Below are positions 11,785 through 28,304 of a DNA stretch of 64,000 nucleotides, one piece after another (the stretch's first letter is position 1; every line of letters begins with the position of its first letter). The position numbers were made by a program, and so were the translations under genes. The stretch is from an uncultured archaeon (GTDB lineage Archaea; Asgardarchaeota; Lokiarchaeia; Sigyniarchaeales; SOKP01). The stretch lies in the NCBI GenBank assembly GCA_964653985.1, contig CAZZIC010000001.1, positions 15,489 through 79,488 of the forward strand, read 5' to 3'. A model generated the notes under the pieces. It saw nothing but the letters and a program-made list of their open reading frames with translations. It had not been told where the DNA came from and did no database searches.

Positions 11785-14337
11785 TTAACTGATTCTTTCA
11801 AGGACTTCCATCAATAAAGAGGGAATTTCCATAATCTTCGTGATATATACAATCTCCCCTTTTGTTTTTTCTAAAATCCATTGGGCATATCTTTTCGAAT
11901 AAGATCTTGTATTAACACCTAATAGAAATTGAACACGTTGGTTAATATATTCTTCTAACTGACTTTTTATTTGACTTTCACTCTCGCTGAAGGCACAATC
12001 TGTTAAAAGAAAGCAGAGTTTCCTTTCTGTACGGGTTTTTTGAAGTTCTTTTGCTCCCCATTCTAAAGCTGCTTTAACTTGAGTCCCTCCCCGAGCCCTC
12101 AAATCAAGTAACTCATCTGCCACATCCTCAAGATCTCGTTGATCTCCGAATTCTTTGACTATGTGAGTATTAGACTCAAAAAAACAGATTGCTACTTCAT
12201 CAGCTTTTAAGGTACCTATTAAAACCATAACTGCTATGGAACATGCGGCAAGTTTCATCCCACTCATTGAACCCGAGATATCAAGTAAAAAACAAATTGA
12301 AACCCTTCCTTTTTCAGTTCTTTGTACTAATAAATCCTCAGATGTAATCATTTCAATTGATTTTCCTTGCATTAAAATATTCTCAATGGTGGCATCAATA
12401 TTTATTAAGTCCATATCATCTCCAAGAATAAATGGTCTCAATTGAGTAGTTGGAATTAAACCCTTTTCTCCACTACCTCTTTGATTAGAAATAATATTCA
12501 TAGCAATTTTGATTAGAGCATCCCTACATAAACCTTTAACAAAACCTTTTAGATGGCTGGGGACTTGGGTTCGGTGATAAAACCACTGGATGAGTAAATT
12601 TTCTCCTGGTCCTGCATTTAAGGATTCCGCTACCCTTTTCTGAGCCCTTTTCCCTTGCTTTCCAGCAGCCTGGAAGGTTTTTCCCATATCATGATGAGAA
12701 AGTGCTCCAAGTCCAGGATAATTATTTTTTTCAAGAGCAATATCTATTAATTCATTTATTTGAGGTCCAGTTAATTTAATCTTTTTCATAATTTTCGCAT
12801 ATCTTTCAAAATTACCAATGTTTTGCTGGTACATTGATTTTAAAAGTTTATAATTACCACCAAATATTTCAATGATAATATCCTCTTTGACACCAAGTTT
12901 TTTACCAATTTTTATAACTTCTCCTTGGTTTAGGGGGACCAAATTAGAAACTAAAGATCTGAGGGAATTTTTAAACTGATCCTTATCATGTGCTGATTCT
13001 AAACCTTTTATCCCCGATTTCAAGGCGTTTCCAACAAAGGTTCCTTGGCAAGATTCGAATTCACTTTGATCTGATAAATTCATTAATTCATTCGCTAAGT
13101 CTGTGAGATTATAACTTGCTTGTCCGTTATTATTAAGATAATCCATTATTTTTCTTTCAATAAGTTCATTAAGCATTTTTCGCCATTGTGGATGTTCCGC
13201 CTGGGCTTGAAAAAGCTCCGATAAAGAAGGAGATGGATTTTGTCTTGTCCATTCTTCAAATAGTTTATTCGTTAAATTGGAGTTAAACTTTTTATCCAAG
13301 GCTCTGGAAATGTCAAATGAAGAATCAGCATCTTTCTGAACGCTATTTGAAAATACTTTATTTTGATCAAATTGAGGGATATGATTTAAAACGTTAGAAA
13401 CCTCATTTAAATCAATAATGTTATCAATTCTATCAATTAAACCGTTCGCAAGAGTGTTGATTTGAGATTTTTCCATACCTACTTGATCGAGATAATTTAA
13501 TGAGCGTGCTGAGGCTCCAACCTCTTCTGAATTCATTACATTATTAAGAGAATTCTTGAAATCCATATCACCCATCAAATATTGAGCTGTAAGATTAATC
13601 CATGGCGTTTTTGCTTGATCTAATATATCTTCCCCCCAATTTAAGTTTGTTGCTGATTGAATATCTGAAGGAGATAAATTATTTATCTCCCGTAGGATTG
13701 TTTGATGACAGTCTTTTTTTAGATCGTTGATATCTTTTATCCCTTGTTCTAAAACATATTTATAATTATCTCTTTGCTCTATAATATCAACTAAACTTCG
13801 AAATGGTTCTTTATCTTGATTTGCTTGGTCATATAGATTATTAACAAAATCCATTAAACCGGAAAATTCTTCCATAGCTTTATCAATTAATTCTTCCGTA
13901 TCCAAATTACTGATATCTAGTTTAGAATCCATTAAATCTAAAAACTCTTCCATAAAATCAGTTTTTTTATCGCTTGTTGCTTCAATATCTTCTTTTTTTT
14001 GTCTCTTTCCAGCTTTATTTTTATCTTTCTTTTCAAAAATAATGTTGAATGCAATTTCTTGGGCAATTGATTGATCCTCTATAGGTGTAGTCAGTACAGC
14101 AGCATTAATAAAGTCGTCAGGAATGAGATTATGCTTACGGTAGTACATTGCAGTTATTAATTTAGGTATCGCTATTGCTTGGCGAGTACTAGGGATGTTT
14201 TTAAGTCTGCCTTTATTCCTTCGCATTTGATAAATAAATTCAATCGTAAATGAGATAGGATTCCACTCTAAGATTTTGTTATTTGCAAAATCTCCGATAT
14301 TACCTTTATCTATTCTTCTCATCCTGTTTTTACTCAT
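11785..14337 (-). CDS. large vWA-domain protein (CbbO/NorD/ViaA-like partner of the adjacent MoxR ATPase)
   Basis: The C-terminal vWA domain has a MIDAS motif DISGS (nt 12268-12282) inside VSICFLLDISGSMSG, followed by GGTQVKAAL and LLTDCAF. The ~650-aa helical N-region is of unknown family. The gene starts 23 nt after the MoxR gene. Confidence 0.75.
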   Translation of the reverse strand: MSKNRMRRIDKGNIGDFANNKILEWNPISFTIEFIYQMRRNKGRLKNIPSTRQAIAIPKLITAMYYRKHNLIPDDFINAAVLTTPIEDQSIAQEIAFNIIFEKKDKNKAGKRQKKEDIEATSDKKTDFMEEFLDLMDSKLDISNLDTEELIDKAMEEFSGLMDFVNNLYDQANQDKEPFRSLVDIIEQRDNYKYVLEQGIKDINDLKKDCHQTILREINNLSPSDIQSATNLNWGEDILDQAKTPWINLTAQYLMGDMDFKNSLNNVMNSEEVGASARSLNYLDQVGMEKSQINTLANGLIDRIDNIIDLNEVSNVLNHIPQFDQNKVFSNSVQKDADSSFDISRALDKKFNSNLTNKLFEEWTRQNPSPSLSELFQAQAEHPQWRKMLNELIERKIMDYLNNNGQASYNLTDLANELMNLSDQSEFESCQGTFVGNALKSGIKGLESAHDKDQFKNSLRSLVSNLVPLNQGEVIKIGKKLGVKEDIIIEIFGGNYKLLKSMYQQNIGNFERYAKIMKKIKLTGPQINELIDIALEKNNYPGLGALSHHDMGKTFQAAGKQGKRAQKRVAESLNAGPGENLLIQWFYHRTQVPSHLKGFVKGLCRDALIKIAMNIISNQRGSGEKGLIPTTQLRPFILGDDMDLINIDATIENILMQGKSIEMITSEDLLVQRTEKGRVSICFLLDISGSMSGMKLAACSIAVMVLIGTLKADEVAICFFESNTHIVKEFGDQRDLEDVADELLDLRARGGTQVKAALEWGAKELQKTRTERKLCFLLTDCAFSESESQIKSQLEEYINQRVQFLLGVNTRSYSKRYAQWILEKTKGEIVYITKIMEIPSLLMEVLERIS

Positions 14338-14360
14338 TCATCAATATTTAAGTATTCTAT

Positions 14361-15272
14361 TTAAGAAACTCCAACAACCTTTGTCAAAATGTGCTTAATA
14401 AACTTCTTAACATCTTTTCCGGGTCTAAGTTCTATTGAATCTTGCAAAATTAGTTTTGCAGATTCAGCGATTAATTTATTATCCACACTAGTATTGAGTC
14501 GATTTGCTCTTTCTGAAACAAATCTAGCAAGTCCTATACTTGTCCTCAAACTGGGTGGCCGTTCAACTTCAGGAGCGTCCCGGCATTGGATCATTAATTC
14601 GATGATCTTTTCTTGCGTTAATGCTGAAAGATTATATTCTGGACAATTTGAAACCATTATCTTCTGTTCTAATGACTTCGGGGGATAACTTAGATGGATC
14701 CAAACTTTTATTCTATCTTTTATAGCAGAGGGTAATCGTCTGGTTCCTTTCAATTCGGTAGGATTCATCGCCGCAATTACATAAAATTCATCTTTTGTCT
14801 TCAACCATGTCTTCAATTGAGGAATATACAAGCGACGCTCCTCCATAGCATCTAACATACTATTTAGAACATACTCATCTCCTCTATTCAATTCATTTGC
14901 TAAGAAGATACCTCCTTTGAGAGCAGCCAAAGAAAAAGGACCCGGGATATATGAGTCTGGTGAAAATCCGTATTTAAAGACCAATGTAGGATCGAATGAA
15001 CCGATCAGTGTGGAAGGCCGTATTAAATCAGAAAAAGTAACCCAATGAAACTCCCTTTCAAGATCGTATGCAAATTTACGACACAATGCTGTTTTACCAC
15101 ATCCCACGGGTCCAACTAAGCCAACAAATAAACCCGCATTATAAGCATCTAGCATTGCTTCATAAGCGTACTTATATTGACCTTCTAGAACTAAATTAAT
15201 ATCCTCGCGGATATCTTCTATTTTACTTTCTTGAATCAATTTTGAAAATTCTTTAACTTGTTGCTTGGACAT
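14361..15272 (-). CDS. MoxR/CbbQ/NorQ-family AAA+ ATPase
   Basis: Walker A is GPVGCGKT. The Walker B region IFLANELNRGDEYVLNSMLDAMEERR has Asn where MoxR proteins have Asp. Sensor 1 and the Arg finger read VIAAMNPTELKGTRRLPSAIKDRI. The 303-aa length is typical of this family. Confidence 0.8.
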   Translation of the reverse strand: MSKQQVKEFSKLIQESKIEDIREDINLVLEGQYKYAYEAMLDAYNAGLFVGLVGPVGCGKTALCRKFAYDLEREFHWVTFSDLIRPSTLIGSFDPTLVFKYGFSPDSYIPGPFSLAALKGGIFLANELNRGDEYVLNSMLDAMEERRLYIPQLKTWLKTKDEFYVIAAMNPTELKGTRRLPSAIKDRIKVWIHLSYPPKSLEQKIMVSNCPEYNLSALTQEKIIELMIQCRDAPEVERPPSLRTSIGLARFVSERANRLNTSVDNKLIAESAKLILQDSIELRPGKDVKKFIKHILTKVVGVS

Positions 15273-15323
15273 TTATTATACACTTTTTTAAATTATTTTT
15301 ATTAGGAATTTATTTATAAGGTT

Positions 15324-15851
15324 TCAATTTTCGAAAAATAATTCCGTTTCTGTAGGTTGAACAACTATTGGAACCTCATAATTTAATTTTTCAATCGCTT
15401 TTACAACTCTGTTGTATTCTTCTTCTTCTAAAACTGTTCTTCGGCCGAATTTTAACCTCTTCATAATGTAATCTCCAAAATATGTTTCCTTAAGATCTTT
15501 CACATAATACTTTTTGCCTTTCTTCTTTACTTGTGAATTTTTTAATTCTTTAATTCTCTTTAATAGAATTATTTTAGCGAGAGGTTTCCAAGATTTCTCT
15601 TGTTTTAAAGCTTCTAAATCAAAATCTCTATGATTTAATTTATCATCTTTTACCATTAAACTAATATTCTTTAAAAACGCAGTAAAATATTTTCTTTTAA
15701 AATTTTCAATGGAACTGGTATCTGTTATTTGATTTGTAAGCTTTGAAAATAGATCCTCAATGATTTTTTCATTCGTGTTTTCATAATATTTTTGAATCTG
15801 TTTTTTTAAGTTAACAGTAAATATATCACACTCATTGTTCTTATTTTCCAA
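15324..15851 (-). CDS. hypothetical protein (175 aa)
   Basis: The TTG start lies 6 nt after an AGGTGA (complement of 15858-15863). It sits 18 nt downstream of the Rad50-like gene and 51 nt upstream of the MoxR gene. I recognise no motif. The C-terminus is ...TETELFFEN. Confidence 0.5.
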   Translation of the reverse strand: MENKNNECDIFTVNLKKQIQKYYENTNEKIIEDLFSKLTNQITDTSSIENFKRKYFTAFLKNISLMVKDDKLNHRDFDLEALKQEKSWKPLAKIILLKRIKELKNSQVKKKGKKYYVKDLKETYFGDYIMKRLKFGRRTVLEEEEYNRVVKAIEKLNYEVPIVVQPTETELFFEN

Positions 15852-15869
15852 TCCTATTCACCTTTTTTT

Positions 15870-18389
15870 TTATTTTTTTAGTTCAATTTTATTATTACAG
15901 ACAATCTTGTCTACATCTTGATGAGTTATGAGTATTACTTGAGTATTTTCCGCCATTGATGAAATATTGGATAAGAGATTTTTTCTATTATTTATATCAA
16001 TGAATTCGGTTGGTTCATCAATTAAAAGAAAAGATGATACATTGATGAGTTCACTAAGTGAAAATTTATAAGAAAGTCCTAATAAAAGTTTATGACCTCC
16101 ACCCTCATATACCCATGCTGGATAATATGTATTAAGACTCATTCCTTTCGGAGTAACAGACAACGAATAATCATCGCTATCAATAAAAATTTTCTCAAAT
16201 TCTTCTTCCGAGGATAAAACCTTATGATAATCTAAAATTCTTTCTTCCAAAGCATTCGAAATATTGTCTCGAATTATTCCTTGGGTCTTTTTAAAAACGT
16301 TCTGAAAATATCTATATTTTTCTGCTAGCTTTTCTTTAAGGAGAAGTATTTGTATTTTTTTTTCATTAACTGCTATTTGCTTGTCTAATCTTTTTATTTT
16401 GTCTTTAATATCTTCCAAATCTTTTTTCAATTGAACTTTTTGCTCTTCCAAATGCTTTAAACTAGATGAAATTTCAGACATTTTCGAAATTATTAATTCA
16501 TTAAAATCCTCTTTCAATTTAGTTGCCGCCTTAAGAGATAAATCGCTTTTAAAGTTATCAATTTGATTTAAAACTACCTTTAAGGGCTTTATAACGCCGT
16601 CATCCTCTCCTAAAAGCTTAATGTATTTATCTAATTCCGTTTTAACAGTATTTAGTAAGATAATGAGATTCCTTTTACCTTCTGTAAGATTTTCTTCAGC
16701 ATCTTTTTTATCTTTTTGAATCTCTTTCATTTTTGAGTTTTGTTTCTCTACTTGCTTGACTGATGAGTTTAAATCATTTAATTCTTTCTCTTTTTTTCGA
16801 TGTTCTTCCCTTAAATCGTTTAAAGCTGTTTTTTTTTCTTGAAGAAGCTTTTCATATTTTTCAATTTTGGTAGTTACATGCTGAATTTGTTCATTTAAAT
16901 CTTTCTCAGAAAGATTATTGATTTTTTCCTCTAAGTCGTTTATTTGTTCAAATAGATTTTTCTTCTTTAAATATTCTTGATAACTCTGTTTTTCTTTTTC
17001 TCTCTGTTTTAATAACTTCTTAGATATATCATTAAGATTTTTTTCATTAGAATCTATATTAGAATCAAAATCCTTTAACTTTTTTTTACATTCCTTGATT
17101 TCTTCTGTTATCTTGGATGCATCGATCGGTGCTCCACAATATTCACATTCTTGATTATCTTTATTTGATTTTCTCCTCTCTAAAATACCGGAGATATTTC
17201 CCTTTTCCCGTTCAATAGTTCTAAAGAAGGTTTGTAATTCCTTCTGTGCTTTTTCTAGCTCATTTAAGTTTTCATTAGTTTTTAAATATTCATCTTTAAA
17301 GTGTTCTATTTTTTTCGCAAGATTCTCTTTCGTTTCAAAAGGTTCAAGAAGTGATTCCTTTTCTTTTAAAATATTCTTTTCTTGTTTCTTTAGAGCATCT
17401 AATTCAACTTTTTTATTTTTGTTTTCTTGAATTTTTTGTTGTAATTTTGAGATTTCTTTCTCTTCATTTTTGATTTTATCATTAGAATCTTCAATAATTT
17501 TATTCAAAGAATTAAAATTTTTCTTTAAATCGTCAACTGATCCGAATTTATTCTTTATTTCTTCGAGTTCTTTTTTTATCATCTCAGTTTTAATATTAGC
17601 TTCTTCAACTGTTTTTTGAATTTCTTCTAAAGAATTAACAGCATCACCGATTTGTTCTGAATATTTCTTGAATTCTTTTAATTGTTCTAATCGATCAGAT
17701 TCTTTTTTAATCTCATCTTTTATGGTGTTTTCTTTATCCTCTTTTTCTTTTAGCTTCTCTGTTTGCTCTTGTTTTTCTTTCTTTGCCTGCTTTATTATCG
17801 CTTCAAATGTATCAAGAACCTTCACCTCTTTTTCGAAATCTAATGCTCGACTCCCAAACATCTTTGCTAAGGCAGTAGCAGATGTTATCCCAAATACTAT
17901 GTCTAATTTTTTATCTCCCGTTAATATATTGGAGATTTCACCTTGGGAAAAATGGACTCCAGTTTCAAAAAATCTCTTTGACATTCCTAATATCTCTAAT
18001 AACTTTAAAGCTAAATCCTCTTCATGGTTCCCAAAATCAGAAGCTAAAATATATTTTTCTTCACTTTCTGAAACCAATTTTTTCAAAGTAAAGAATCCAG
18101 TTGCTGATCTCGTTTTTCCCTTTAATTTATGCATTCTTTGGAGTTTGTATTTAGATCCATCCTTTCCTTTAAAGATGAGCTCTACTCCAACAGAATTTTG
18201 TTTGAATTTGGCTAATTGAGCGATTTTCTTAAATCCTCCAACGCCCCCAAAAAGACAGTATTCAATGGCATAAAAAATTGTTGTTTTCCCCGCATTATTT
18301 CTTCCATAGATCAAATTAAACGTTGGGTCAAATTGTAAAAGAATATCTTCATGTCTCCTAAAATTTTTCAACCTAATTGATTCAATCAC
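15870..18389 (-). CDS. Rad50/SbcC-like SMC-family ATPase, paralogue 2 (CxxC zinc hook, degenerate signature motif)
   Basis: Walker A is GRNNAGKTT and the Q-loop is HFSQGE. A long coiled coil carries the central hook CEYC (nt 17136-17147). EGGGHK replaces the LSGGE signature. Walker B is FLLIDEPTEFID and the H-loop is ILITHQD. The longest ORF extends to a TTG at 18461. The GTG at 18389, 9 nt after GAGGAGG (complement of 18399-18405), gives the typical Rad50 N-terminus (V/M)IESIRLKNFRRH. Confidence 0.8.
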   Translation of the reverse strand: MIESIRLKNFRRHEDILLQFDPTFNLIYGRNNAGKTTIFYAIEYCLFGGVGGFKKIAQLAKFKQNSVGVELIFKGKDGSKYKLQRMHKLKGKTRSATGFFTLKKLVSESEEKYILASDFGNHEEDLALKLLEILGMSKRFFETGVHFSQGEISNILTGDKKLDIVFGITSATALAKMFGSRALDFEKEVKVLDTFEAIIKQAKKEKQEQTEKLKEKEDKENTIKDEIKKESDRLEQLKEFKKYSEQIGDAVNSLEEIQKTVEEANIKTEMIKKELEEIKNKFGSVDDLKKNFNSLNKIIEDSNDKIKNEEKEISKLQQKIQENKNKKVELDALKKQEKNILKEKESLLEPFETKENLAKKIEHFKDEYLKTNENLNELEKAQKELQTFFRTIEREKGNISGILERRKSNKDNQECEYCGAPIDASKITEEIKECKKKLKDFDSNIDSNEKNLNDISKKLLKQREKEKQSYQEYLKKKNLFEQINDLEEKINNLSEKDLNEQIQHVTTKIEKYEKLLQEKKTALNDLREEHRKKEKELNDLNSSVKQVEKQNSKMKEIQKDKKDAEENLTEGKRNLIILLNTVKTELDKYIKLLGEDDGVIKPLKVVLNQIDNFKSDLSLKAATKLKEDFNELIISKMSEISSSLKHLEEQKVQLKKDLEDIKDKIKRLDKQIAVNEKKIQILLLKEKLAEKYRYFQNVFKKTQGIIRDNISNALEERILDYHKVLSSEEEFEKIFIDSDDYSLSVTPKGMSLNTYYPAWVYEGGGHKLLLGLSYKFSLSELINVSSFLLIDEPTEFIDINNRKNLLSNISSMAENTQVILITHQDVDKIVCNNKIELKK

Positions 18390-18636
18390 TTTGTTTTTCC
18401 TCCTCTTTAGCTGGGAAATCACCCTCAATTTCTTTAATATCAGATTCAAACATTTCTTCAATTCTAGAAGCTAATTTTTCCCTCGCTTTTTTAGCCAATT
18501 TAAAAGTTTTGGTCAAATTTTCTTCATCATCAAATAAATAGTTTGTAAATTCAAAAAGGGAAACCAGGTTTTCTTTTTCATTTTCTTCTAATTCAAACTT
18601 CTCTAGAATATCTGAAATGCTAAATTTAAATTCCAT
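18382..18636 (-). CDS. small acidic protein (84 aa), unknown function
   Basis: This ATG-started ORF lies between the two Rad50-like genes. Its last 8 nt overlap the proposed GTG start of the downstream gene (GTGATTGA). Its composition is helical and acidic. Confidence 0.5.
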   Translation of the reverse strand: MEFKFSISDILEKFELEENEKENLVSLFEFTNYLFDDEENLTKTFKLAKKAREKLASRIEEMFESDIKEIEGDFPAKEEEKQSD

Positions 18637-18720: not shown

Positions 18721-21432
18721 TCATACATTAGTAAGATAACTTACCTGTGTGGATTCGTTATTATCTTTTGAAAGTTTAATAACATACTCGCTGTGACGCT
18801 TAAAGGAATCATCATGGGAAATGACAAAAAGTTGGTTGAATCCCTCTATATTATTTATATATTTGCTAAGATTATTTCTTGATGTCTCATCTAGGTTTGT
18901 TGTCGGTTCATCAAAAATTGCAAACTTTGCCGAAGTGAGTGTCTTTAAAATGGCTAATCTTACTGCTAATGCAGCTGCCATTTTTTCTCCTCCTGATAAT
19001 CTGATAAACTTCTTTTTGCTTTTTGCTTTTAAAATCTCAATTTCATAGTTTTGATCCCACTGTAATGAGGTATTTTGATCTCCTCTAATGTTACGATATA
19101 TTTTTGAAGCTTGTCTATTTACTTTCTGAATTAATTGTTGTCTCATTTTTGGTTTAAAATCTTTTAACCAATTCCGTATTTTACTTACAAATTTTTTTTC
19201 GGCTTCTAATTTTAGCTCAATTTCTTTAAATTCATCTAGTTTTTTCTCTTTTGATTCTAAATTCTCGAGTTCTTCATTAATTTCGTCTAATCTCTGCTGC
19301 AAATTACGCAAATTTTCTTCTAACTTAATTATATTCCGGTTTTTTTCATCGAATTCTTCTTGTAATTTTTTATGGGTGACTTCATTATATTTAGCAGATA
19401 ATTCTTTTAACTCCTCTAAGCTCTCAGAATACTGTTTTACCAAATTCTCTAATCTTTGCTTGGCTCTATTAACTTTTTCTTTTCTTTGTTTTAATTTTTC
19501 TGCTTCGTTTATATTTTTCTGATATTGGTTATATGCTTTTTCTAAATTATTTAATTTCTTTCTTATCGCCGATAATTTATCTGGAATATTTCCTAACTTA
19601 GCTATTTTGCTTTTTAGATTTTCCTTCTTAGATTCTACTTCTTCTACTTCTACCTTTAGTTCTTCTAACTGATTTTCTATATCCTTGAGATCTTCTACTT
19701 TTCTTTTATGAATAAGATAATCATCATGAAAAGGTTGTAATGCTTCTCGCTTTTCCATAAGCTTTTTTTTAGAGTTAATCAATTGAGATTTTTCTGTAAT
19801 TTTACTATTAATTTCATTTATTTCTTCTTTCATAGACTTATATTGTTTTTCAAACTCTTCTAATTTTATAGCATTCCGTTTTAGATGTTCTATTTCATCC
19901 TGAAAGTCCTCCTTTTTTTTTAATTTCTCACTGATTTCATTCAAATCCCTTCTCTTAGATTTTAACTCTTCATTCTTTAAGATAATATCTTGATTAAAAT
20001 AATCTATATCAAACTCGCCATCTAGCATATTTTTACATTGTTGATCCGTAAATGGACATAGTTTTTGTTCTACTTTATTTTGATGATTTTGAAAGAATGA
20101 TATATCATTTTTTATACTTGAAATTTCTAATGCTAATGTGTTTTTCTTTTGTTCAAGTGTTTTGATATTTTCCAGCTTCTCTTTTAATTTTGGTAAGTTT
20201 TCTACTTCTTTTTTTATAGTATTTATATTTTTTTTAAGGGATGATACTCGTTCTTTTTTTTTATTAAGTCTCGACTCTGCGGCTTTAATAACTGCGATTT
20301 GTTCATCCAATTTTTTGATCTTAGATTCTAATTTTAAAAATCCTTCATATTTTGGTTCAATTTCTTTTATAATTTTTGAGGAATTCTTTGCTTCATTTAA
20401 CTTTTCCTTCTTATTGGAATATTTATTTTTTATATTCTGATATTTTTGATTCATCTCATTAAGTTTTTCCTTTAATCTACTTAGTTCTTCGCTTTCTTTA
20501 ATTAATTCCTCTTTCATTTCAGAATTCTTGAGGTATTGTTGGTAGTCATCTTTTGTATCGTTCACAACTTCTTTAGCGTGGCTAGACTCTTTTAATTGCT
20601 GCTGAAACATCACTAGATTTTGTTCTTCATTCTTCTTTTTTACTTCTAATTGCCTATACGTAGATGTTATCTCATCTAACTTTCCTTTTGTTGATTTGAA
20701 GTCATCCAATTCATTTTTGATTTTCTGCTTTTCCCTTCTGAATTCGTTTAATTTTTTTGATTTATTATCAATCTCTTTGGAAACTTCCTTTTTGTACCTT
20801 ACCTTAGATTCTTTTTCTTTAGTTTCCCCAGTTAATTCACTGATTTGATTTTGGATAGTTACTAATTCATCTCTAAAACTCCTTTCAATTACACCTAAAT
20901 TATCCCAATATTCTTCATATGTGTCTAGCTGAAAGATCTCATCAAAATATTCCTTCCTCTCCTTAGGACTCCTTAAAAAGATGTTAATTATCATTCCTTG
21001 AGGAATCCCAATAGCAGTATTAAACAAGGTCTGGAGATCTATATTATTTTTTACTCCAAGTTGATGTTTTATCCAAGATCTAAATTTTGAAATAGTCTCA
21101 ATCTGGGGAGAAACTTCCTTTCCTTTCTCATCTTTTACCTCAATATCAGTTTTTCCGATTTTTCGCTTAATTGTGTAGATTTTATTATTTAATCCATTTA
21201 TCCATATTTTAATAGATCCATATTCGGGCTTATCATTTTCAACTGATCGAACATAATCTGAATGTTGAGTTTTTGATTTTAAGAAATCGAACAAAACATA
21301 CCCGATCATTTCCAAAACGGTTGATTTACCAGTTCCGTTGTTGCCATAAAGGACATTTAGCCCTTCATTAAACGTTATTGTAGTATCTTTATGTGTTTTA
21401 ACATTTTCGATTTGAATTTTTCTAATTAGCAT
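18721..21432 (-). CDS. Rad50/SbcC-family ATPase, paralogue 1 (canonical signature, atypical hook)
   Basis: Walker A is GNNGTGKST and the Q-loop is GIPQG. A ~600-aa coiled coil carries the central CPFTDQQC (nt 20035-20058). The signature is LSGGEK, Walker B is FAIFDEPTTNLD and the H-loop is VISHD. The longest ORF reaches 21477 through an ATG run that is the out-of-frame reading of the Mre11 Asp-codon run. The ATG at 21432 lies 8 nt after GAGGTGA and gives MLIRKIQIENVKTH. Confidence 0.85.
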   Translation of the reverse strand: MLIRKIQIENVKTHKDTTITFNEGLNVLYGNNGTGKSTVLEMIGYVLFDFLKSKTQHSDYVRSVENDKPEYGSIKIWINGLNNKIYTIKRKIGKTDIEVKDEKGKEVSPQIETISKFRSWIKHQLGVKNNIDLQTLFNTAIGIPQGMIINIFLRSPKERKEYFDEIFQLDTYEEYWDNLGVIERSFRDELVTIQNQISELTGETKEKESKVRYKKEVSKEIDNKSKKLNEFRREKQKIKNELDDFKSTKGKLDEITSTYRQLEVKKKNEEQNLVMFQQQLKESSHAKEVVNDTKDDYQQYLKNSEMKEELIKESEELSRLKEKLNEMNQKYQNIKNKYSNKKEKLNEAKNSSKIIKEIEPKYEGFLKLESKIKKLDEQIAVIKAAESRLNKKKERVSSLKKNINTIKKEVENLPKLKEKLENIKTLEQKKNTLALEISSIKNDISFFQNHQNKVEQKLCPFTDQQCKNMLDGEFDIDYFNQDIILKNEELKSKRRDLNEISEKLKKKEDFQDEIEHLKRNAIKLEEFEKQYKSMKEEINEINSKITEKSQLINSKKKLMEKREALQPFHDDYLIHKRKVEDLKDIENQLEELKVEVEEVESKKENLKSKIAKLGNIPDKLSAIRKKLNNLEKAYNQYQKNINEAEKLKQRKEKVNRAKQRLENLVKQYSESLEELKELSAKYNEVTHKKLQEEFDEKNRNIIKLEENLRNLQQRLDEINEELENLESKEKKLDEFKEIELKLEAEKKFVSKIRNWLKDFKPKMRQQLIQKVNRQASKIYRNIRGDQNTSLQWDQNYEIEILKAKSKKKFIRLSGGEKMAAALAVRLAILKTLTSAKFAIFDEPTTNLDETSRNNLSKYINNIEGFNQLFVISHDDSFKRHSEYVIKLSKDNNESTQVSYLTNV

Positions 21433-21440
21433 TTTATTTT

Positions 21441-21447
21441 TCACCTC
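21441..21447 (-). promoter_or_regulatory. Shine-Dalgarno-like site (GAGGTGA) that contains the Mre11 stop codon, 8 nt upstream of the Rad50 ATG
   Basis: The minus strand reads GAGGTGAaaaataaaATG. The TGA (21446-21448) is the Mre11 stop. Confidence 0.6.
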
Positions 21448-23041
21448 AGATATTTGTATCTTCATCATCATCATCAATTATACTATCAATATCAAAATCT
21501 TCACCTTCTGCATCTAAAAGTTCTTTAAATTCGCCGAATTCTTGTGAGAAATCCTCTTCTTTCCAAGCTTCTTCTATAGAGATTTGTTTCGTTTGTTTTT
21601 TCTTCTTTTTCTTTTTCTTCGTTTTTTTAACTTTTGGTTTTTTCGAAGCTTTTTGATGTTTAACTATTTTGAGCATTTCATTTAAAATATCTTGGTTTAA
21701 ATTAAACCAATCCTCTAATTCAGTTTTAATTACATTATAATCAGCATTTTTGGTTAGTTTTCCCTTTAATTCATTTAAGATTAAATTAGTGATTTCTTTT
21801 TTGTAAGGTTTAAACTTTGCCTCGTTATCGATTGTAGATAAAAGAGCTTCTTTCTCGATTTTTTCAAAATTCCAATCATCCTCAATATCAAGCGAGTAAT
21901 TTTTTTCGGAATAAATTTGATTATTAAGTCGAAGACCTAGGATTTCAAAATTGTCGAAAATCCTATTTTTCAGTTCAGTCAAATCAATTTCCAATTCCGA
22001 ATACTCAATCCAACCTTTGATAAATATATATAAAACAGGAATATCCAAATTAGATAGATTAGTCTCATCTCCCGTTTTTTCGGGGACTCCTAATTTTCTT
22101 AGTCTAGAAATTACCATCTCTTGAGCTTCTTCGAAGGATTGTGATTCTGTGATATTAATAGAGGAGTAGGTTAGAAATCTTCTATTTGGAATAGAAAAAC
22201 GATTATCTGTACTTCCATTTTCACAAAGTATTGGTTGAGCAGTAAAGTTAAAGTTATCCTCTGGAAAAATGTTTACCAAATAAATACCTCGGTCATCCCC
22301 CAATTCAGTAATTTCATTAACTTCTAGGCTGCCAGGATTAAATATCCACGGATTATTCTCTGGTTTTTCATATTGTATATGAAAATGTCCTAGGGCTAGG
22401 TAATCTACTTTATCATGGAGTTCTTGTAGACTCTTTGTTAAAGGATATCCTTTTTTTCTTTTATCTTCCCCTTGGATTCCGAAGTGCATCATTAGAATGA
22501 CAAATTTTTCCTCCTCGTCAATTTCCTTCTCTATTAAAGGATATAAGTTAGGTGTCGAACTTCCAAAATAACTAATCCCATAAATTGTTGTATTACCGAT
22601 CTGTATTTTTCCCCCTCTATGCTCTCTATATGAATAGTCTTCAAAAATAATTCTATTCGCTGCTTTATCATATTTTCCTGAAAGTAAAATAATTAGCTCT
22701 AAATCTGCAAGTAATTTTAGCCATGTACGATCTGAAAAAAATGGGGTTTCATGATTTCCTTCAATACAAATTATCGGAATTTTTCTTTTTAAGCTTTCTT
22801 CACATTTTGATTGAAAATCTTTAATAGTTGTTATAATATTTCCTAACGTCGACGGATTCACTTTTCTCTCACTATCTATTAAATCCCCGCTAATTAAGAC
22901 GAAATTCACCTCTTCGTAAATTGCCTTGTTAAGCAACCATTCAAAAGCTTTAAAAAAATCATTATATCGTTGTTTTATTCCATATAAGGTTTTTCCTAAG
23001 TGAAGATCAGCAGCATGTATAAATTTAATATTTCCACTCAT
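21446..23041 (-). CDS. Mre11/SbcD-family calcineurin-like phosphoesterase (nuclease) with K-rich then acidic C-terminal tail
   Basis: The five phosphoesterase motifs are I IHAADLHLG, II LISGDLID, III IEGNHE, IV LMMHFG and V LALGHFH. The tail reads KKPKVKKTKKKKKKKKQTK ... DAEGEDFDIDSIIDDDDEDTNI. Confidence 0.85.
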   Translation of the reverse strand: MSGNIKFIHAADLHLGKTLYGIKQRYNDFFKAFEWLLNKAIYEEVNFVLISGDLIDSERKVNPSTLGNIITTIKDFQSKCEESLKRKIPIICIEGNHETPFFSDRTWLKLLADLELIILLSGKYDKAANRIIFEDYSYREHRGGKIQIGNTTIYGISYFGSSTPNLYPLIEKEIDEEEKFVILMMHFGIQGEDKRKKGYPLTKSLQELHDKVDYLALGHFHIQYEKPENNPWIFNPGSLEVNEITELGDDRGIYLVNIFPEDNFNFTAQPILCENGSTDNRFSIPNRRFLTYSSINITESQSFEEAQEMVISRLRKLGVPEKTGDETNLSNLDIPVLYIFIKGWIEYSELEIDLTELKNRIFDNFEILGLRLNNQIYSEKNYSLDIEDDWNFEKIEKEALLSTIDNEAKFKPYKKEITNLILNELKGKLTKNADYNVIKTELEDWFNLNQDILNEMLKIVKHQKASKKPKVKKTKKKKKKKKQTKQISIEEAWKEEDFSQEFGEFKELLDAEGEDFDIDSIIDDDDEDTNI

Positions 23042-23097: not shown

Positions 23098-26000
23098 CTA
23101 TTTTTTGTATCTTAATTTCACTTTTTGTAATAAATTTGTAGATTTATTTTTAATCTGAAGTGGGATCTCCCTATTACAATATTCTTTAACATACATATAG
23201 ATTTTTGATGAATATTTAAGGATTTCCCTCTCATCGGGTATATAATTTATGAATTTATTACTAGAAATAAAAATAAGCTTACTTTTGGCTCTAGAGGTTA
23301 ATACATTAAACCTGTTTAAATTATAAATAAATTCATCCTCCATTTGGAGTTTATCCTCATCAGATAACCCAATCGAGCAGATAATTAAATCCCTATCAGA
23401 GCCTTGAAACTTTTCAACCGAATATACAGTTTCCTTTAAAGCTTGCATTAATTTAGATTTTGATAATTTAGTAAAGGGCTCAAATAATTGAAAAATGTTT
23501 CGAATTATAGTCCTTCCTTGTGCATTATGTGGAGCTACCACACCAATCTGTTGCTGCCAAAAGGTATTCTCTTCTTGTACAGTTAATGGGCTAATCATTT
23601 CATAGAATCCCTTGACAATCTCTGCTACAATTTGAGCCTCAAAAAGACTGATTCCAATCTCAAATTTTTCAGAATGAATGATGGAGCATGCTACTCTACT
23701 AGGTTTCAAAACTTCCTTTATCCAAGATTGTTTAATATCATCTACGCTCCCTTTAAGAACTCTATTCGCATTTTCTTTATACGCCTTTAAATTATCATAA
23801 AGTCCCAATTTGGATGTAAATTCAACTATATCTTTATGGGAACGATAATTAACTTTTAACTGCTTACGCGATATCTCATGCCCCTCGACATAGTATCTAA
23901 AAATATTATCTAAAATAATTTCAAGATTTTTAGGTGGTTTTTTAACCCTTACAGGGGGAAGTTGATTATGATCTCCAACGACCACGACTTTAGTCAGGGA
24001 ATCGTCAATAATTTTGTTATCAACAAGGGTTATTTCTTTAATTGAATCCTTATTAGTAATCCGCTTTCTCGGATTCAAATTTTCAAGTTTTTCGATATTT
24101 ATTTTGGGTTTTTTAATGAATTGAAGACTAGCCATAAAATAATCTGCGGGAAGTTGACTTGCCTCATCAACACAAATTAGATCAAATGTAAAATCTTCGG
24201 AAACACGTTTAGGTAAATGATATAATTGATGAGCATTAGCAAAAATTATAAAATCATTTTTCAAGGATTCTTCTAATGGTTTAGTTTTCGTAATCGTATA
24301 AGATTCACCATTTAGCTTCCATGTGTCTCCGTCTCTTAATATATTATCCACATCTCTTAGGGTAGGATCCCTCCCTATCGGTTCCTTAGAGATAGAATGA
24401 ATAAAAACCATTTGGAGTCTAGAAGAAGGAGTAGGCTTATTCAATATGTTTTTACTCCTTCGAACCTTGTCGATTACCACTCGTAAAGCAGCGTAAGAAA
24501 ATGACGTAATTAGAATTCTTACATTTTTATTCTGTTTTTTTCGCCTTATAACAAATTCGTCTATCAAAGAAGCAATGGTCTGAGATTTACCGGTACCAGG
24601 AGGTCCTAGAATCGCTGAAATTATATTTTCAAGGGAATTTAGTATTGCTTCTTTTTGAGAGGTGTCTGGAATAGGTTTTATTTTCGAAATTAATTTTTCA
24701 TTGTTTATAGTTTTATTGACTTTCTTTAAAACAGAAGGAGCATATAGATATATTGAAGGCGTTGTAAAATTCCACTTTTCTGGCCATTTTAATTTAGGTT
24801 TACTCCTTAAATCCCATAAAAATGCCAACCGAGCTCCTAGCCATGATCTCCCGAAATGCTCTCTTTGAAGCAAGCCTCTACTCTTATTGTTATATAATTT
24901 ACTTGACCAAGCATCAGAGCTAATAGGATAAATATACCATTTTTGGGTATCTGGATTAAGACCTTCGCCTTTACATATTTCAATTACATTTGTAGTAGTG
25001 GGTTTTGTAGAGATTTTATTTCCTTTAATTGATTGTTCCCATTTTATCCTCTCAATATAGACAATCCACTTGTAAATTCTTTTATCAAGTTTTATTCCTC
25101 GTTTAGAATTGGGAATCAGTAAAACTCGATCACCCTCTTTTAATTTCATGTTACTTGAAAGTCCAATAAGATTAAAGGTATATTTTAAAGATTTTCCTTG
25201 TAATTTATGAATCTTCAAATCTCTTACTCGCGCTGAAATTAACTTTCCAATGCTAAAATCAGGAAACATGGTTCTGAAATATTCATCATCTTGCTGTTGA
25301 AGAGCACTATTTAATTTTGAAAACAAATACCATACATGAGCAATGTCATGATAATCAGAAGGTAAAATTGCACTTTTATAATCATGACGGCTGATAGTTC
25401 TTGCATTTTGGGATAAAGCAATATTTCCTTGTTTTTGAAAGCGAATACGCAAGCTGTCTATAACGTGTAATTTTAGGATTATTTGATTTTTGATAACATC
25501 TCTTTTCTTCTTTTTTTTGTTAGAATCTTCTTCTCTTAGATACAACAACCAAGAAGCTAAATCTAAATAGTTAAAATGAGGTACCCAATACATTCTTGTT
25601 TTGATCTCTAACTTATCAAAAAGCTTATTGGCGATACTATGCCAAGTATAGTTAATTACATCTGGAAAACCAATACAAGATTCCGCAAAACTCTGGATAT
25701 CAAACAGCTTTTTGTATTGATAAGGATTACTCACTTCTGTATCGGATGGCGTAAAATACATTAGAATTGCCTCATAAGCAGCTCTTGCTTCTATGTTATC
25801 GATTACTAAATCTAAATTTCTCTGAATCATATCTTGAAGATGATCTAATTGATTTCGAGACCAATAAAAAATACTTGTATCTGGTCCTATCTGGTACCTT
25901 CCGTATTTTCCATCGATATCAATAATTATATGATCTTCAATTATACTGCACATTTGAAGTATTAGATTCAACTTTTTAATCATCTTGATAGTGAGTTCTG

Positions 26001-27573
26001 CTTCACTCTTTTTCGTGATATCCTTGTTAACACTGGAAAATCTATACATTACACTCGTTCCAGCAGAAGTTTTTTCTCCTCTTAATGTAATTTCGATTGT
26101 CTTTAATTTTTTCAAGCAATCAAGAAAATAATCAACATTTTCAATTGCAATTCCTTTTACTAAATAATCATTGAGCTTTTCTTGAATTTTTTTTGTAGAT
26201 TTATCTTCTTTTAACGCGTTCTTCCAAATCCTCCACCAATTGTCAAAAATACCATGATATTTTAACTTTGAAGGAATGAACATTTTTAAAAGAATTCCAA
26301 CCGCAAAAATCCGATCTGTGTTACGATCATATTCAACATCAAAATAAATTGCTAAGGGTGAATATCTGGGAATCGAATACGAATAGGTTTGTTTATTTTT
26401 TGGGAATATCAGTCTATTATTTTTTAATGCTCTTGTCTTAAGTTTTAAGGTTGGTAATTCAGAATAAAGAGGTTTAGGTATGTTCCCTACCTTAATTCTA
26501 TCGAAATTATTTGATAGTTCGCCAATAGTCTGTATGTTAAATTCATTTTTCAACTGTTGAGCGATGGATTTCGAGGTGAATGGAAGAAGTTCGATAGCCC
26601 AATCCTCTGGATTATCCCTATCCTTCATTCCTAAAGTATTTTTACAATCCTCAATAAACTGACAATAACCACATCCATCATGGATATTTGTTTTTACTTG
26701 AGAAATTGGACATGGAGCTTTTCTCCATAATTTTTCAACAACTTTAACCACTCTGTTGTAAATTCGATTTGATTCTTTCCAACTTATTGGAGTAATCAAC
26801 TCCTTGGCAAAGATATCTGCTATAAATGTAAGATCTTTAAATTCCTCTTCATCGTGCAATGGAAAGATTCCGTTATAATTTGCTCTAACGTAAAAAAGAT
26901 TATCCAAACCAATCTCTTTAAGATATAAAGCTAAGGTCTTTAAATAGTAAAAAATCTCAAAAAAATGTTTTTTACCAATATTCTCCTCATTAGTGTACTT
27001 TATATCAAAAATGGAAATGCCCAACCGGTCATTTTCCTTTTCTTTCGGTATTTTTTTTATACTTCCATCAGATAAGATTTCATATACAGAATCCAAATAA
27101 TGGTTTATCTTGTTTCCAATAAAAATTAAATCAGGTCTTTGGGAGGAATAATCTACTGGAATATTTTTTATTTTAGCTTTAGGATCAAAAAGTTTATAGA
27201 AAAAAATTTTAGGAATTTCAAATTCATATTCTAATAATAAAATGAGTGAGTTTGGAAATTTTCCTTTGAGTCTTTTATTTATATCAGTTAATATTTTGGG
27301 AGTAAGATAAGAATCTTGGATTATTCCATTGTGTTCATTATAGATGCTATTCTTAAGATTTTTAATATAAGAATAAATTAACTTTTCATATTCTTTTCCT
27401 TTCTCTTTGAGAAATTTTGTCTGAAAGATGAGTCTTTCAGGAGGAGTAGATGGTATTGGTCTCACGGGATTAAACCACAAATTTGGCTTATCTCGCCCTA
27501 ATTCCAAAAACAATCTCCTTTTACAATTAGTGAGAATATAGCTCTGAAGTAATGTCTTATTAAATTTAGCCAT
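23098..27573 (-). CDS. Cas4/Dna2-type Fe-S PD-(D/E)xK nuclease + RNase H-like domain + SF1B (Upf1/Dna2-like) helicase fusion, 1491 aa
   Basis: The N-terminal nuclease has C17, then RPDLIF, SIFDIKYT and FYYLKTLALY, then C301-x2-C304-x5-C310 (CGYCQFIEDC, nt 26644-26673), which is the Cas4/AddB/Dna2 iron-staple pattern. The middle region contains AIYFDVEYD...IFYWSRNQLDHL...LFDIQ, which looks DnaQ/RNase H-like. The helicase motifs are I GPPGTGKSQT (nt 24583-24606), II LICVDEASQL, III VVVVGDHNQLPPV, IV YRSHKDIVEF, V VEKFQGSDRDLIICS and VI FNVLTSRAKSKLIFI. Confidence 0.85.
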   Translation of the reverse strand: MAKFNKTLLQSYILTNCKRRLFLELGRDKPNLWFNPVRPIPSTPPERLIFQTKFLKEKGKEYEKLIYSYIKNLKNSIYNEHNGIIQDSYLTPKILTDINKRLKGKFPNSLILLLEYEFEIPKIFFYKLFDPKAKIKNIPVDYSSQRPDLIFIGNKINHYLDSVYEILSDGSIKKIPKEKENDRLGISIFDIKYTNEENIGKKHFFEIFYYLKTLALYLKEIGLDNLFYVRANYNGIFPLHDEEEFKDLTFIADIFAKELITPISWKESNRIYNRVVKVVEKLWRKAPCPISQVKTNIHDGCGYCQFIEDCKNTLGMKDRDNPEDWAIELLPFTSKSIAQQLKNEFNIQTIGELSNNFDRIKVGNIPKPLYSELPTLKLKTRALKNNRLIFPKNKQTYSYSIPRYSPLAIYFDVEYDRNTDRIFAVGILLKMFIPSKLKYHGIFDNWWRIWKNALKEDKSTKKIQEKLNDYLVKGIAIENVDYFLDCLKKLKTIEITLRGEKTSAGTSVMYRFSSVNKDITKKSEAELTIKMIKKLNLILQMCSIIEDHIIIDIDGKYGRYQIGPDTSIFYWSRNQLDHLQDMIQRNLDLVIDNIEARAAYEAILMYFTPSDTEVSNPYQYKKLFDIQSFAESCIGFPDVINYTWHSIANKLFDKLEIKTRMYWVPHFNYLDLASWLLYLREEDSNKKKKKRDVIKNQIILKLHVIDSLRIRFQKQGNIALSQNARTISRHDYKSAILPSDYHDIAHVWYLFSKLNSALQQQDDEYFRTMFPDFSIGKLISARVRDLKIHKLQGKSLKYTFNLIGLSSNMKLKEGDRVLLIPNSKRGIKLDKRIYKWIVYIERIKWEQSIKGNKISTKPTTTNVIEICKGEGLNPDTQKWYIYPISSDAWSSKLYNNKSRGLLQREHFGRSWLGARLAFLWDLRSKPKLKWPEKWNFTTPSIYLYAPSVLKKVNKTINNEKLISKIKPIPDTSQKEAILNSLENIISAILGPPGTGKSQTIASLIDEFVIRRKKQNKNVRILITSFSYAALRVVIDKVRRSKNILNKPTPSSRLQMVFIHSISKEPIGRDPTLRDVDNILRDGDTWKLNGESYTITKTKPLEESLKNDFIIFANAHQLYHLPKRVSEDFTFDLICVDEASQLPADYFMASLQFIKKPKINIEKLENLNPRKRITNKDSIKEITLVDNKIIDDSLTKVVVVGDHNQLPPVRVKKPPKNLEIILDNIFRYYVEGHEISRKQLKVNYRSHKDIVEFTSKLGLYDNLKAYKENANRVLKGSVDDIKQSWIKEVLKPSRVACSIIHSEKFEIGISLFEAQIVAEIVKGFYEMISPLTVQEENTFWQQQIGVVAPHNAQGRTIIRNIFQLFEPFTKLSKSKLMQALKETVYSVEKFQGSDRDLIICSIGLSDEDKLQMEDEFIYNLNRFNVLTSRAKSKLIFISSNKFINYIPDEREILKYSSKIYMYVKEYCNREIPLQIKNKSTNLLQKVKLRYKK

Positions 27574-27977: not shown

Positions 27978-28304
27978 ATGTCCAATAAAAAAAAATATGA
28001 AGATACGTGGAAAACTAATCGACAATGGCTTATTGATCTTCTTAAAGACAAAAAATATGAATTAAATTTAGAAGATGTGATGAGAGATTTTGAATATCGA
28101 AGCAAGAAAGCGTTAATTAGAGATGTGATGAGCGTAGCCAACACTCTTAAAAACCAAGAAATCACTATTTTGGTCAATCCTGCGAGATGTAAGGATTGTG
28201 GATATAGGTTCCGACAAAGAAAAAGAAAGTTAAAAATCCCCTCTAAATGTCCAAAATGTAAAGGAGAACGTATATCTTGGCCTTCGATTAAAATAGAAGA
28301 GTAG
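27978..28304 (+). CDS. small HTH + Zn-ribbon putative transcriptional regulator
   Basis: This 108-aa protein has a helical N-half and a C-terminal ribbon CKDCGYRF...KCPKCKG, an architecture like archaeal HTH-Zn-ribbon regulators. Confidence 0.6.
   Translation: MSNKKKYEDTWKTNRQWLIDLLKDKKYELNLEDVMRDFEYRSKKALIRDVMSVANTLKNQEITILVNPARCKDCGYRFRQRKRKLKIPSKCPKCKGERISWPSIKIEE

Follow-up and report, generated by a model that had tools for sequence, protein, structure and literature searches.

A nuclease–helicase encoded with Mre11 and Rad50 in Lokiarchaeia is a candidate enzyme of DNA-end resection

A 64,000-nucleotide stretch of contig CAZZIC010000001.1 from an uncultured archaeon of the Lokiarchaeia (the whole of this stretch is called the window below) encodes a 1491-residue protein in which a PD-(D/E)xK-type nuclease is followed by an Upf1-like SF1B helicase, and its gene opens a cluster that continues with mre11 and rad50. 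We call the protein NucHel. Its domain architecture is settled to a good standard, and its gene lies beside mre11–rad50 in nearly all Asgard loci analysed. We lean towards the reading that in Lokiarchaeia NucHel serves with Mre11–Rad50 as a single-chain 5'-3' resection motor-nuclease, in place of HerA–NurA, the pair for which archaeal double-strand-break resection has mainly been worked out, in thermophilic archaea (PMC3326311, PMC4351679). The three genes and the parts of NucHel are as follows.

23098..27573, minus strand: NucHel gene, first of the cluster; ATG start, 1491 aa (open reading frame (ORF) list and translation)
26614..27573, minus strand: PD-(D/E)xK (RecB/Cas4/TM0106-like) nuclease domain, aa 1-320, assigned from invariant residues, hhalign and an AlphaFold2 (AF2) model
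26644..26673, minus strand: C301-x2-C304-x5-C310, putative [4Fe-4S] ligands together with C17 (codon 27523-27525), 46/46 in the family
26389..26601, minus strand: helix-hairpin-helix (HhH)-like linker, aa 325-395, LPFTSKSIAQQL...TIGEL, aligning with the VANITRGQVKKLEASGI segment of TM0106 proteins
25534..26376, minus strand: exonuclease-like domain (RNase H-fold, TM0106 C-terminal-type), aa 400-680, assigned from the model and alignment to TM0106
24724..25533, minus strand: helical segment and beta-barrel, aa 681-950, suggested by Foldseek with weak E-values
23101..24723, minus strand: Upf1-like SF1B helicase core, aa 951-1491; Pfam AAA_11, AAA_12 and AAA_19 above their cut-offs
21446..23041, minus strand: Mre11 gene, 531 aa; Pfam Metallophos 61 bits, phosphoesterase motifs
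18721..21477, minus strand: Rad50 gene of archaeal type, 918 aa; NCBIfam PRK03918, C-x6-C apex

A sequence-only reading of the window had placed the 1491-aa ORF directly upstream of Mre11 and had quoted from it the motifs RPDLIF, SIFDIKYT and FYYLKTLALY along with C17 and C301-x2-C304-x5-C310. The ORF list, the translation and the 56-nt gap between NucHel and mre11 confirm the placement, and every quoted motif is present in the protein; mre11 and rad50 overlap by 32 nt. We counted residue conservation in 46 non-identical family members, whose identity to the window protein ranges from 23 to 100%. C17, C301, C304 and C310, whose conservation in homologues the sequence-only reading had made a point of, were each present in 46/46, as were P147, D148, D190, K192, E206 and Y210, while E115 was found in 44 (Gln in the other 2). 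The quoted motifs supply R146-P147-D148 (RPDLIF), D190 and K192 (SIFDIKYT), and Y209 and Y210 (FYYLKTLALY). The putative catalytic residues of the nuclease (E115, D148, D190-x-K192 and E206-x3-Y210) keep the order of an acidic residue, D, (D/E)-x-K and Q/E-x3-Y that characterizes RecB/Cas4-type nucleases. The cysteines follow the iron-staple pattern, with one before the nuclease core and a conserved C-x2-C-x5-C after it, and among the 13 cysteines of NucHel the C301-C310 stretch is the sole C-x2-C-x5-C site. In AddB, Cas4 and Dna2 this C...C-x2-C-x5-C arrangement holds a [4Fe-4S] cluster. We infer that C17 and C301/C304/C310 bracket the nuclease core as putative ‘iron staple’ ligands of such a cluster.

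Family models did not recognize this part of the protein. No Pfam family, including Cas4, PDDEXK and Dna2, matched the N-terminal 390 aa at E<=10, whether in NucHel, in 14 homologues or in 33 bacterial relatives. Searching PDB sequences with profiles of the N-terminal and middle parts gave no match, and neither did Pfam and NCBIfam at loose thresholds for the N-terminal 950 aa. The proposed PD-(D/E)xK core is upheld by its invariant residues and by the TM0106 profile link described below, but not by a Pfam Cas4 or PD-(D/E)xK profile; of the profile matches that the earlier reading had called for, those to AAA_11 and AAA_12 were obtained. In the AF2 model of the nuclease (pLDDT 77.6), the catalytic residues lie on successive strands and the next helix, as in RecB/Cas4-type enzymes. 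The cysteine loop (aa 294-316) is disordered (pLDDT <50), as expected because the model has no cofactor. Foldseek gave weak lists dominated by PD-(D/E)xK proteins: bunyaviral cap-snatching endonucleases, Cas4 SSO0001, AddB and N.BspD6I in PDB (all E>1e-3), and phage PD-(D/E)XK nuclease superfamily proteins (E 6.6e-3, the best, to 0.1), DUF2800, UL24 and Cas4 in BFVD.

NucHel belongs to a sizeable family. A search with aa 1-952 gave 59 homologue clusters, nearly all of ~1490 aa and 38-100% identical, whose named members come from Lokiarchaeota, Promethearchaeota or Hermodarchaeota metagenome-assembled genomes. Species-representative genomes held 26 loci, all in Promethearchaeota except for one Heimdallarchaeota homologue at 32% identity. 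A HMMER profile of aa 1-965, run against 1.84 billion representatives, retrieved 268 at E<=1e-3, of which 110 reached E<=1e-30. Outside the Asgard clade, bacterial proteins of ~1420 aa form a further clade (P0170, P0186, P0193, P0198, P0202), collinear with the Asgard proteins end to end (full-length hhalign 100%, E 1e-119, 1277 columns). A word-indexed search seeded with one of the bacterial relatives yielded 24 proteins, most of them truncated. The Heimdallarchaeota homologue (L032 1671-8032; L numbers designate analysed loci carrying homologues or Mre11) is 32% identical over aa 1-449 and keeps the four cysteines and the D/DxK motifs; its gene reaches the contig end and divergently adjoins MutS-MutL. 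When the same genome pairs were compared, NucHel was better conserved than Mre11 (57/46/42/42/38% against 49/41/36/39/34%).

To identify the nearest described relatives, we turned to TM0106-type RecB-like nucleases, which the sequence-only reading had named as a comparator. The NCBIfam model TIGR03491 (‘TM0106 family RecB-like putative nuclease’; curated cut-off 97.45 bits) weakly matched 14 of the 33 bacterial relatives, with a best score of 22.2 bits (E 5.9e-5). It was the only recurrent non-helicase family among them, and its matches span the exonuclease-like region. The N-terminus of the window protein had no match to this model at E<=1, and the TM0106 profile itself had no match in PDB. 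A plasmid tblastn search yielded PGAP-annotated TM0106 proteins with a C-terminal SF1 helicase of their own, and seven PGAP-annotated proteins made up our TM0106 comparison set. Aligned with only three near-identical TM0106 proteins, hhalign was marginal (E 0.05); four more diverse members were added afterwards. With the full set, the Asgard N-terminus aligned at 82.4% and E 1e-5 over 321 columns (aa 5-448), and the bacterial clade at 97% and E 1.2e-10 over 268 columns; Asgard and bacterial clades aligned with each other at 99.9% and E 1.1e-35 over 616 columns. The aligned pairs include the functional positions: C17 of the window protein with C21, and C301, C304 and C310 with C211, C214 and C220; D190/K192 with D132/K134, and E206..Y210 with Q146..Y150; the HhH-like segments with each other; and D412/E414/D416 with D315/E317/D319. 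On these alignments TM0106, not Cas4 or Dna2, is the nearest curated family of NucHel.

In the linker between nuclease and exonuclease-like domain, P331, T333, S336, I337, L341 and T349 are invariant. Residues 407-590 are well modelled by AF2 as an alpha/beta domain in which beta strands and helices alternate. Its counterpart in TM0106 proteins is their exonuclease-like half, which is annotated as a PolB-exonuclease/RNase H-like domain; the domain of NucHel carries in addition an Asgard-specific helical insertion at about aa 436-500. The FDVEYD motif of NucHel aligns with YDIEGD, the ExoI motif of TM0106 proteins. The window protein has the first Asp of FDVEYD, D412, which only 10/46 members carry (Ala in 26), while E414 is kept in 44/46 and D416 and E524 in 46/46. 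Q575 is near-invariant where TM0106 proteins have an ExoII-like Glu in an alignment read by eye, and H666-x4-D671 is conserved (H666 in 44/46, D671 in 43/46). The full DEDD/DnaQ set (ExoI D-x-E, ExoII acid and ExoIII) is incomplete in most of the 46 members, and the exonuclease-like domain is probably catalytically degenerate, judging by these residues. The DnaQ/RNase H-like module proposed earlier survives as a TM0106-type RNase H-like fold, but the first Asp of its ‘FDVEYD’ is not a family feature.

The ~250 aa that follow had been put down as a region of unknown fold, a description that no longer holds. Residues 681-950 are poorly modelled (pLDDT 35-80), and Foldseek with the model (m345098d17022) gave Upf1 2xzp as the best match (E 8.7e-3, prob 1.00), with Sen1 and Dna2 5eax/5eaw (E 0.06) behind it. 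The region appears as helices and a beta-barrel resembling, at weak E-values, the accessory domains of Upf1, Sen1 and Dna2, and probably represents the stalk/1B-type accessory domains of Upf1-like helicases.

The C-terminal assignment as an Upf1/Dna2-like SF1B helicase proved correct. AAA_11 (53.7 bits) and AAA_12 (72.7 bits) both clear their cut-off of 27, and the SF1 motif set (Q, I, Ia, II, III, IV, V, VI) is complete and invariant in 22-46 sequences, including GPPGTGKS (990-997), DEASQ (1136-1140), VGDHNQLPPV, NYRS, VEKFQGSDRD and NVLTSRAK. The nearest PDB helicases are DNA2, IGHMBP2, Upf1 and Sen1, with mouse DNA2 the nominal top match. When the family profile was run against PDB, however, DNA2 (56.3 bits) and yeast NAM7/Upf1 (55.8 bits) were tied, and only the helicase segments aligned. 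Because of the AAA_11/AAA_12 matches, the invariant SF1 motifs and this tie, we describe NucHel as an Upf1-like SF1B helicase; because DNA2 and Upf1 tie, the earlier label ‘Dna2-type’ keeps its value as an analogy of domain order and loses it as a statement of family membership.

These results bear on whether NucHel might be the archaeal orthologue, or the direct ancestor, of eukaryotic Dna2, acting mainly at forks in Okazaki-flap and stalled-fork processing, with the mre11–rad50 linkage reflecting a shared resection role that eukaryotes inherited. The order of an Fe-S PD-(D/E)xK nuclease and then an SF1B helicase is shared with Dna2, as is the C-x2-C-x5-C spacing; Dna2 structures turn up in the fold comparison of the middle region, mouse DNA2 nominally heads the helicase list, and the host is an Asgard archaeon. 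Against this, the bit scores do not separate DNA2 from Upf1, no Pfam Dna2 nuclease-domain match appeared even at E<10, NucHel carries a TM0106-type exonuclease-like domain that Dna2 is not known to have, and its demonstrable relatives are bacterial TM0106-type fusions. We therefore rejected Dna2 orthology as the primary reading and consider it improbable.

Both partners of NucHel have their best family matches among archaeal Mre11 and Rad50. The Mre11 motifs DLH, GDL, GNHE, H186 and GHFH are intact, and 6 orthologues show no variation at these positions; its best NCBIfam model is archaeal Mre11 (Mre11_Pyroc, 85 bits, below cut-off). Rad50 is best matched by PRK03918, at 247.6 bits over its full length, below the curated cut-off. 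The Rad50 encoded beside NucHel has only two cysteines, C474 and C481, which form CP[FI]xxxxC (C-x6-C) at the coiled-coil apex and not the canonical C-x-x-C zinc hook. This apex is found in 12/14 orthologues (beyond the window, in L003, L004, L006, L007, L014, L018, L039, L044, L051, L058 and L070), and the high-GC outgroup L106 has CPVC.

The linkage of the family to mre11–rad50, also asked for by the sequence-only reading, was found from both directions. Starting from NucHel, Mre11–Rad50 is adjacent in 23/25 informative loci, immediately downstream in 22 and divergent in 1 (L026). Starting from Mre11, in a scan of metagenomes with family-specific peptide patterns, NucHel lies directly upstream in 29/29 Loki-type Mre11 loci with upstream sequence. 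Such linkage also speaks to the idea that NucHel, as an Upf1-like helicase-nuclease, is directed at RNA, serving in RNA surveillance or in the removal of R-loops, and lies next to mre11 by coincidence. Several of the close PDB helicases act on RNA (Upf1, Sen1, IGHMBP2 and Aquarius), and the fold of the middle domain is RNase H-like; yet the linkage is far above chance, the nuclease comes from a DNA-end-processing lineage, and the relatives are paired with DNA methyltransferases and SbcCD. We regard an RNA-directed role as highly improbable.

Other genes near the triad also pertain to DNA. In L004 (5125-7364), a DUF8166 gene and HerA stand between NucHel and Mre11; it is the sole locus in which HerA and NucHel occur together. 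In L070 (4245-6412), the same C-x6-C Rad50 lineage is accompanied by DUF8166-HerA and lacks NucHel, which fits interchangeable NucHel and HerA modules. Wherever a DUF8166 gene (~198 aa) occurs in Mre11–Rad50 clusters (L004, L070, L106/L107), HerA (DUF87) comes directly after it, and no NurA was recognized in these clusters. Against PDB, DUF8166 gave only a faint match to HerA (E 0.21); it might serve HerA there as a nuclease or adaptor. Near the triad, an ATP-dependent DNA ligase is encoded in at least seven loci (L003, L005, L050, L051, L054, L055, L066), either downstream of Rad50 or divergent upstream of NucHel (for example L003 18930-21774 and L005 6124-9522), and is preceded by two small ORFs of 198/231 aa or 247/287 aa; L005 also carries a PNK3P-domain gene and a NERD/UvrD helicase.

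Beyond these genes, the flanks of the cluster are metabolic and differ between lineages. Among the Asgard loci with inspected gene annotation, none showed a methyltransferase. The window is AT-rich (~30% GC) and the GC content of the cluster is unremarkable. A recently acquired island was considered and rejected, on the grounds of its ordinary GC and housekeeping flanks.

Several observations weigh against a role in resection. The closest full-length relatives are bacterial and reside in defence islands and on conjugative plasmids. The window also encodes a second Rad50-like ATPase, a MoxR ATPase and a von Willebrand factor A (vWA) protein, types that also occur in conflict systems. One NucHel subclade (L001, L002, L013) has no Mre11–Rad50 neighbours and sits among large uncharacterized genes. 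The linkage counts given above cover loci and not whole genomes, so that a second, canonical Mre11–Rad50/HerA–NurA set could exist elsewhere in these genomes, and no structure-search E-value in PDB or BFVD reached 1e-3.

The subclade just mentioned is ~50% identical to the window protein (L001 13230-19309, L002, L013). In L001 and L002, NucHel is followed by ORFs of 917, 732, 195 and 131 aa, with NOV_C, NT5C and CoiA-like nuclease genes nearby; the 917-, 732- and 195-aa ORFs had no significant Pfam or PADLOC match, and the 195-aa ORF had a faint match to HTH_40.

Because the bacterial relatives sit in defence islands, we continue to give weight to the alternative, already raised by the sequence-only reading, of a phage-defence effector. 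The cluster would then be an anti-virus or anti-plasmid module in which the Rad50/SMC-type ATPase senses foreign DNA ends or topology and NucHel processively destroys the DNA, as its end-to-end collinear bacterial homologues apparently do. Members of the bacterial clade come from the Methylorubrum extorquens AM1 megaplasmid and from Bradyrhizobium and Rhizobium plasmids; they follow DUF1156/PglX-like methyltransferases and SNF2 helicases, and one belongs to a DUF499-SbcD-SbcC-methyltransferase-nuclease-helicase cluster. On Sphingobium and Mesorhizobium conjugative plasmids, a WYL regulator is followed by the TM0106-helicase, a DNA repair exonuclease and an AAA ATPase (the latter two an SbcCD-like pair), sometimes with a methyltransferase. 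Elsewhere the TM0106-type gene precedes a TrlF ATPase beside BREX, Wadjet-like DUF3375/DUF4194/ATPase genes, or an AAA ATPase with McrC, or lies beside an anti-phage dGTPase. The partner that recurs across these fusions is a Rad50/SMC-type ATPase (SbcCD-like, TrlF or Wadjet-like). Also in favour of defence are the subclade without Mre11–Rad50, of which L001 and L013 lie near NOV_C and CoiA-like nuclease genes, and a faint match of the 175-aa ORF in the module downstream of the triad to CTD1 of ABC-3C systems (Pfam, E 0.019).

The Asgard loci differ from this picture in several respects. Their annotated genes include no methyltransferase or other self-marking gene, and housekeeping genes flank the cluster. 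Synteny is near-invariant across lineages down to ~40% identity, a stability unusual in defence islands. The neighbours include DNA ligase, the PNK3P-domain gene, HerA and MutSL. Mre11 and Rad50, the partners of NucHel, belong to the archaeal repair type and resemble the SbcCD-like pair of the plasmids only marginally (E about 1e-4). PADLOC-DB 2.0 found in the window only partial helicase matches (MkoA, DpdJ, PDC-S37) and generic SMC matches (LmuB, mad3); it had no match for Mre11, the 175-aa ORF or the vWA protein, and no full-length system-specific model was matched. The defence proposal draws on the bacterial contexts, and we judge it rather unlikely for the Asgard cluster, though with a real share of our expectation. 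Among the bacterial TM0106-helicase loci (L119 3892-12962, L122, L124, L126, L127, L121, L125, L036), an E1/E2/multiubiquitin set is another neighbour, and a divergent WYL regulator is frequent, as are conjugative plasmids.

Returning to a role in resection, the repair genes near NucHel (archaeal-type Mre11/Rad50, HerA in L004, ligase, PNK3P and MutS-MutL) favour it, as do the housekeeping signs (metabolic flanks, the lack of methyltransferases in the inspected Asgard loci, ordinary GC and conservation above that of Mre11). Domain composition, residue conservation and gene linkage are observed; that NucHel holds an Fe-S cluster, in which direction it moves, what it acts on and that it cooperates with Mre11–Rad50 we infer. 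The following course could be envisaged. Mre11–Rad50 would recognize and open a DNA double-strand break, and NucHel would load onto the 5'-terminated strand. Its SF1B motor would then travel 5' to 3', a direction we assign because it is the polarity of characterized Upf1-like helicases, and would pass the strand to the Fe-S nuclease for degradation, leaving a 3' single-stranded tail for RadA. NucHel would thus carry in one chain the role of HerA–NurA in other archaea, of AddAB/RecBCD/AdnAB in bacteria and of DNA2 with Sgs1/BLM in eukaryotes. We put forward more tentatively, as possible and short of probable, that Lokiarchaeia replaced an ancestral HerA–NurA by a NucHel hard-wired to Mre11–Rad50, within a much wider superfamily whose members pair with Rad50/SMC-type ATPases (SbcCD, TrlF, Wadjet) on bacterial mobile elements. 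If this were so, an SMC-type sensor and a TM0106-type nuclease-helicase would make up a general machine for processing DNA ends, and the Asgard version would correspond in function, among prokaryotes, to the eukaryotic MRN-DNA2 pathway and might conceivably be its evolutionary origin.

The remaining genes around the triad in the window are these.

15870-18461, minus strand: second Rad50-like ATPase, 863 aa, canonical CEYC hook (Pfam)
15324-15851, minus strand: 175-aa ORF between the genes for the second Rad50-like ATPase and MoxR
14361-15272, minus strand: MoxR AAA+ ATPase (Pfam)
11785-14337, minus strand: vWA protein, 850 aa (Pfam)
27978-28304, plus strand: 108-aa ORF; Pfam matches to a PF0610-type zinc ribbon and, faintly, to CdiI

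The module at 11785-18461 (Rad50-like ATPase, 175-aa ORF, MoxR and vWA) is co-directional with the triad and tightly spaced, a candidate extension of the operon. It lies downstream of the triad in L007, L008, L009, L012, L039 and L040, upstream in L064, and is present in part in L004, where vWA/MoxR is convergent. The 108-aa ORF is divergent and upstream of NucHel, and is not kept there in other lineages; it could be a local regulator of the cluster. Pfam gave nothing significant for the small neighbouring ORFs (the 84-aa and 175-aa ORFs of the window and the 198/231-aa and 247/287-aa ORFs beside DNA ligase). Low-GC Lokiarchaeia-like contigs (L072-L105, L108-L111, L113-L118; e.g., L083 9926-11110 and L111 9938-11122) carry a second Mre11-like phosphoesterase, a solitary one of ~390 aa that shares 31-42% identity with the Mre11 of the window. 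It has no Rad50 neighbour and keeps a conserved synteny, in which we noted by eye acetyl-CoA decarbonylase/synthase-like subunits, a nucleotidyltransferase-like gene and a ~535-aa membrane protein.

To our knowledge, DNA-end resection in Asgard archaea is unstudied, and we know of no experiment on any member of the superfamily; a literature search of limited reach found no account of the Asgard operon or of TM0106 proteins. The NucHel-Mre11-Rad50 operon offers a concrete, purifiable candidate for Asgard end resection. Lokiarchaeia are close archaeal relatives of eukaryotes, and the operon bears on the origin of the eukaryotic MRN and DNA2 arrangement, whether by descent or by convergence. The recurrent association of TM0106-type fusions with Rad50/SMC-type ATPases suggests a modular machine for repair and defence.

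Among known systems, the closest are the bacterial TM0106-helicase fusions (e.g., WP_021316582.1 of Sphingobium sp. CAP-1 plasmid p1), labelled by PGAP as ‘TM0106 family RecB-like putative nuclease’ or ‘bifunctional RecB family nuclease/DEAD/DEAH box helicase’, a family that is itself uncharacterized as far as we know. Their modules are collinear with those of NucHel: the first cysteine, D/D-x-K/Q(E)xxxY, C-x2-C-x5-C, HhH, the D-x-E-x-D domain and the SF1 helicase are shared, and the gene order nuclease-helicase, Mre11/SbcD-like, Rad50/SbcC-like is often that of the window. In contrast to them, the window protein is ~390 aa longer, has the Asgard-specific insertion and falls below the TIGR03491 cut-off; in the Asgard family the first ExoI Asp is mostly lost and Gln replaces the ExoII-like Glu (by eye), and the partners are archaeal-type Mre11/Rad50 with neither methyltransferase nor WYL regulator. 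The bacterial ~1420-aa clade has the four cysteines and nuclease residues of the window protein; it lacks the Asgard insertion, and in most members the third cluster cysteine is displaced by an insertion of 15-18 residues. Nhi, Hhe, ProA, MkoA and DpdJ, like NucHel, unite an Upf1-like/SF1 helicase and a nuclease in one polypeptide. The PADLOC/NCBIfam matches to MkoA, DpdJ, ProA and Hhe cover the helicase core only and lie far below the family cut-offs, and the N-terminal 950 aa had no match to these models.

Archaeal HerA–NurA, like NucHel, is encoded with mre11–rad50 and is proposed to act in 5'-3' resection (PMC3326311, PMC4351679). The folds are unrelated, HerA being a hexameric FtsK/HerA ATPase and NurA an RNase H-like nuclease on a separate polypeptide, and HerA is usually absent from the Lokiarchaeial clusters. 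AddAB, AdnAB and RecBCD are helicase-nuclease resection machines, and AddB has the same C...C-x2-C-x5-C staple around a RecB-type nuclease. Those machines comprise two or three subunits with SF1A motors (plus the SF1B RecD), whereas NucHel has one SF1B motor in a single chain, and we know of no Chi-like control for it. Eukaryotic DNA2, which carries out long-range resection with MRN, has an N-terminal Fe-S PD-(D/E)xK nuclease, a barrel and stalk, and a 5'-3' SF1B helicase. Compared with DNA2, to which its nuclease has no detectable sequence match, the window protein possesses additional HhH and exonuclease-like domains.

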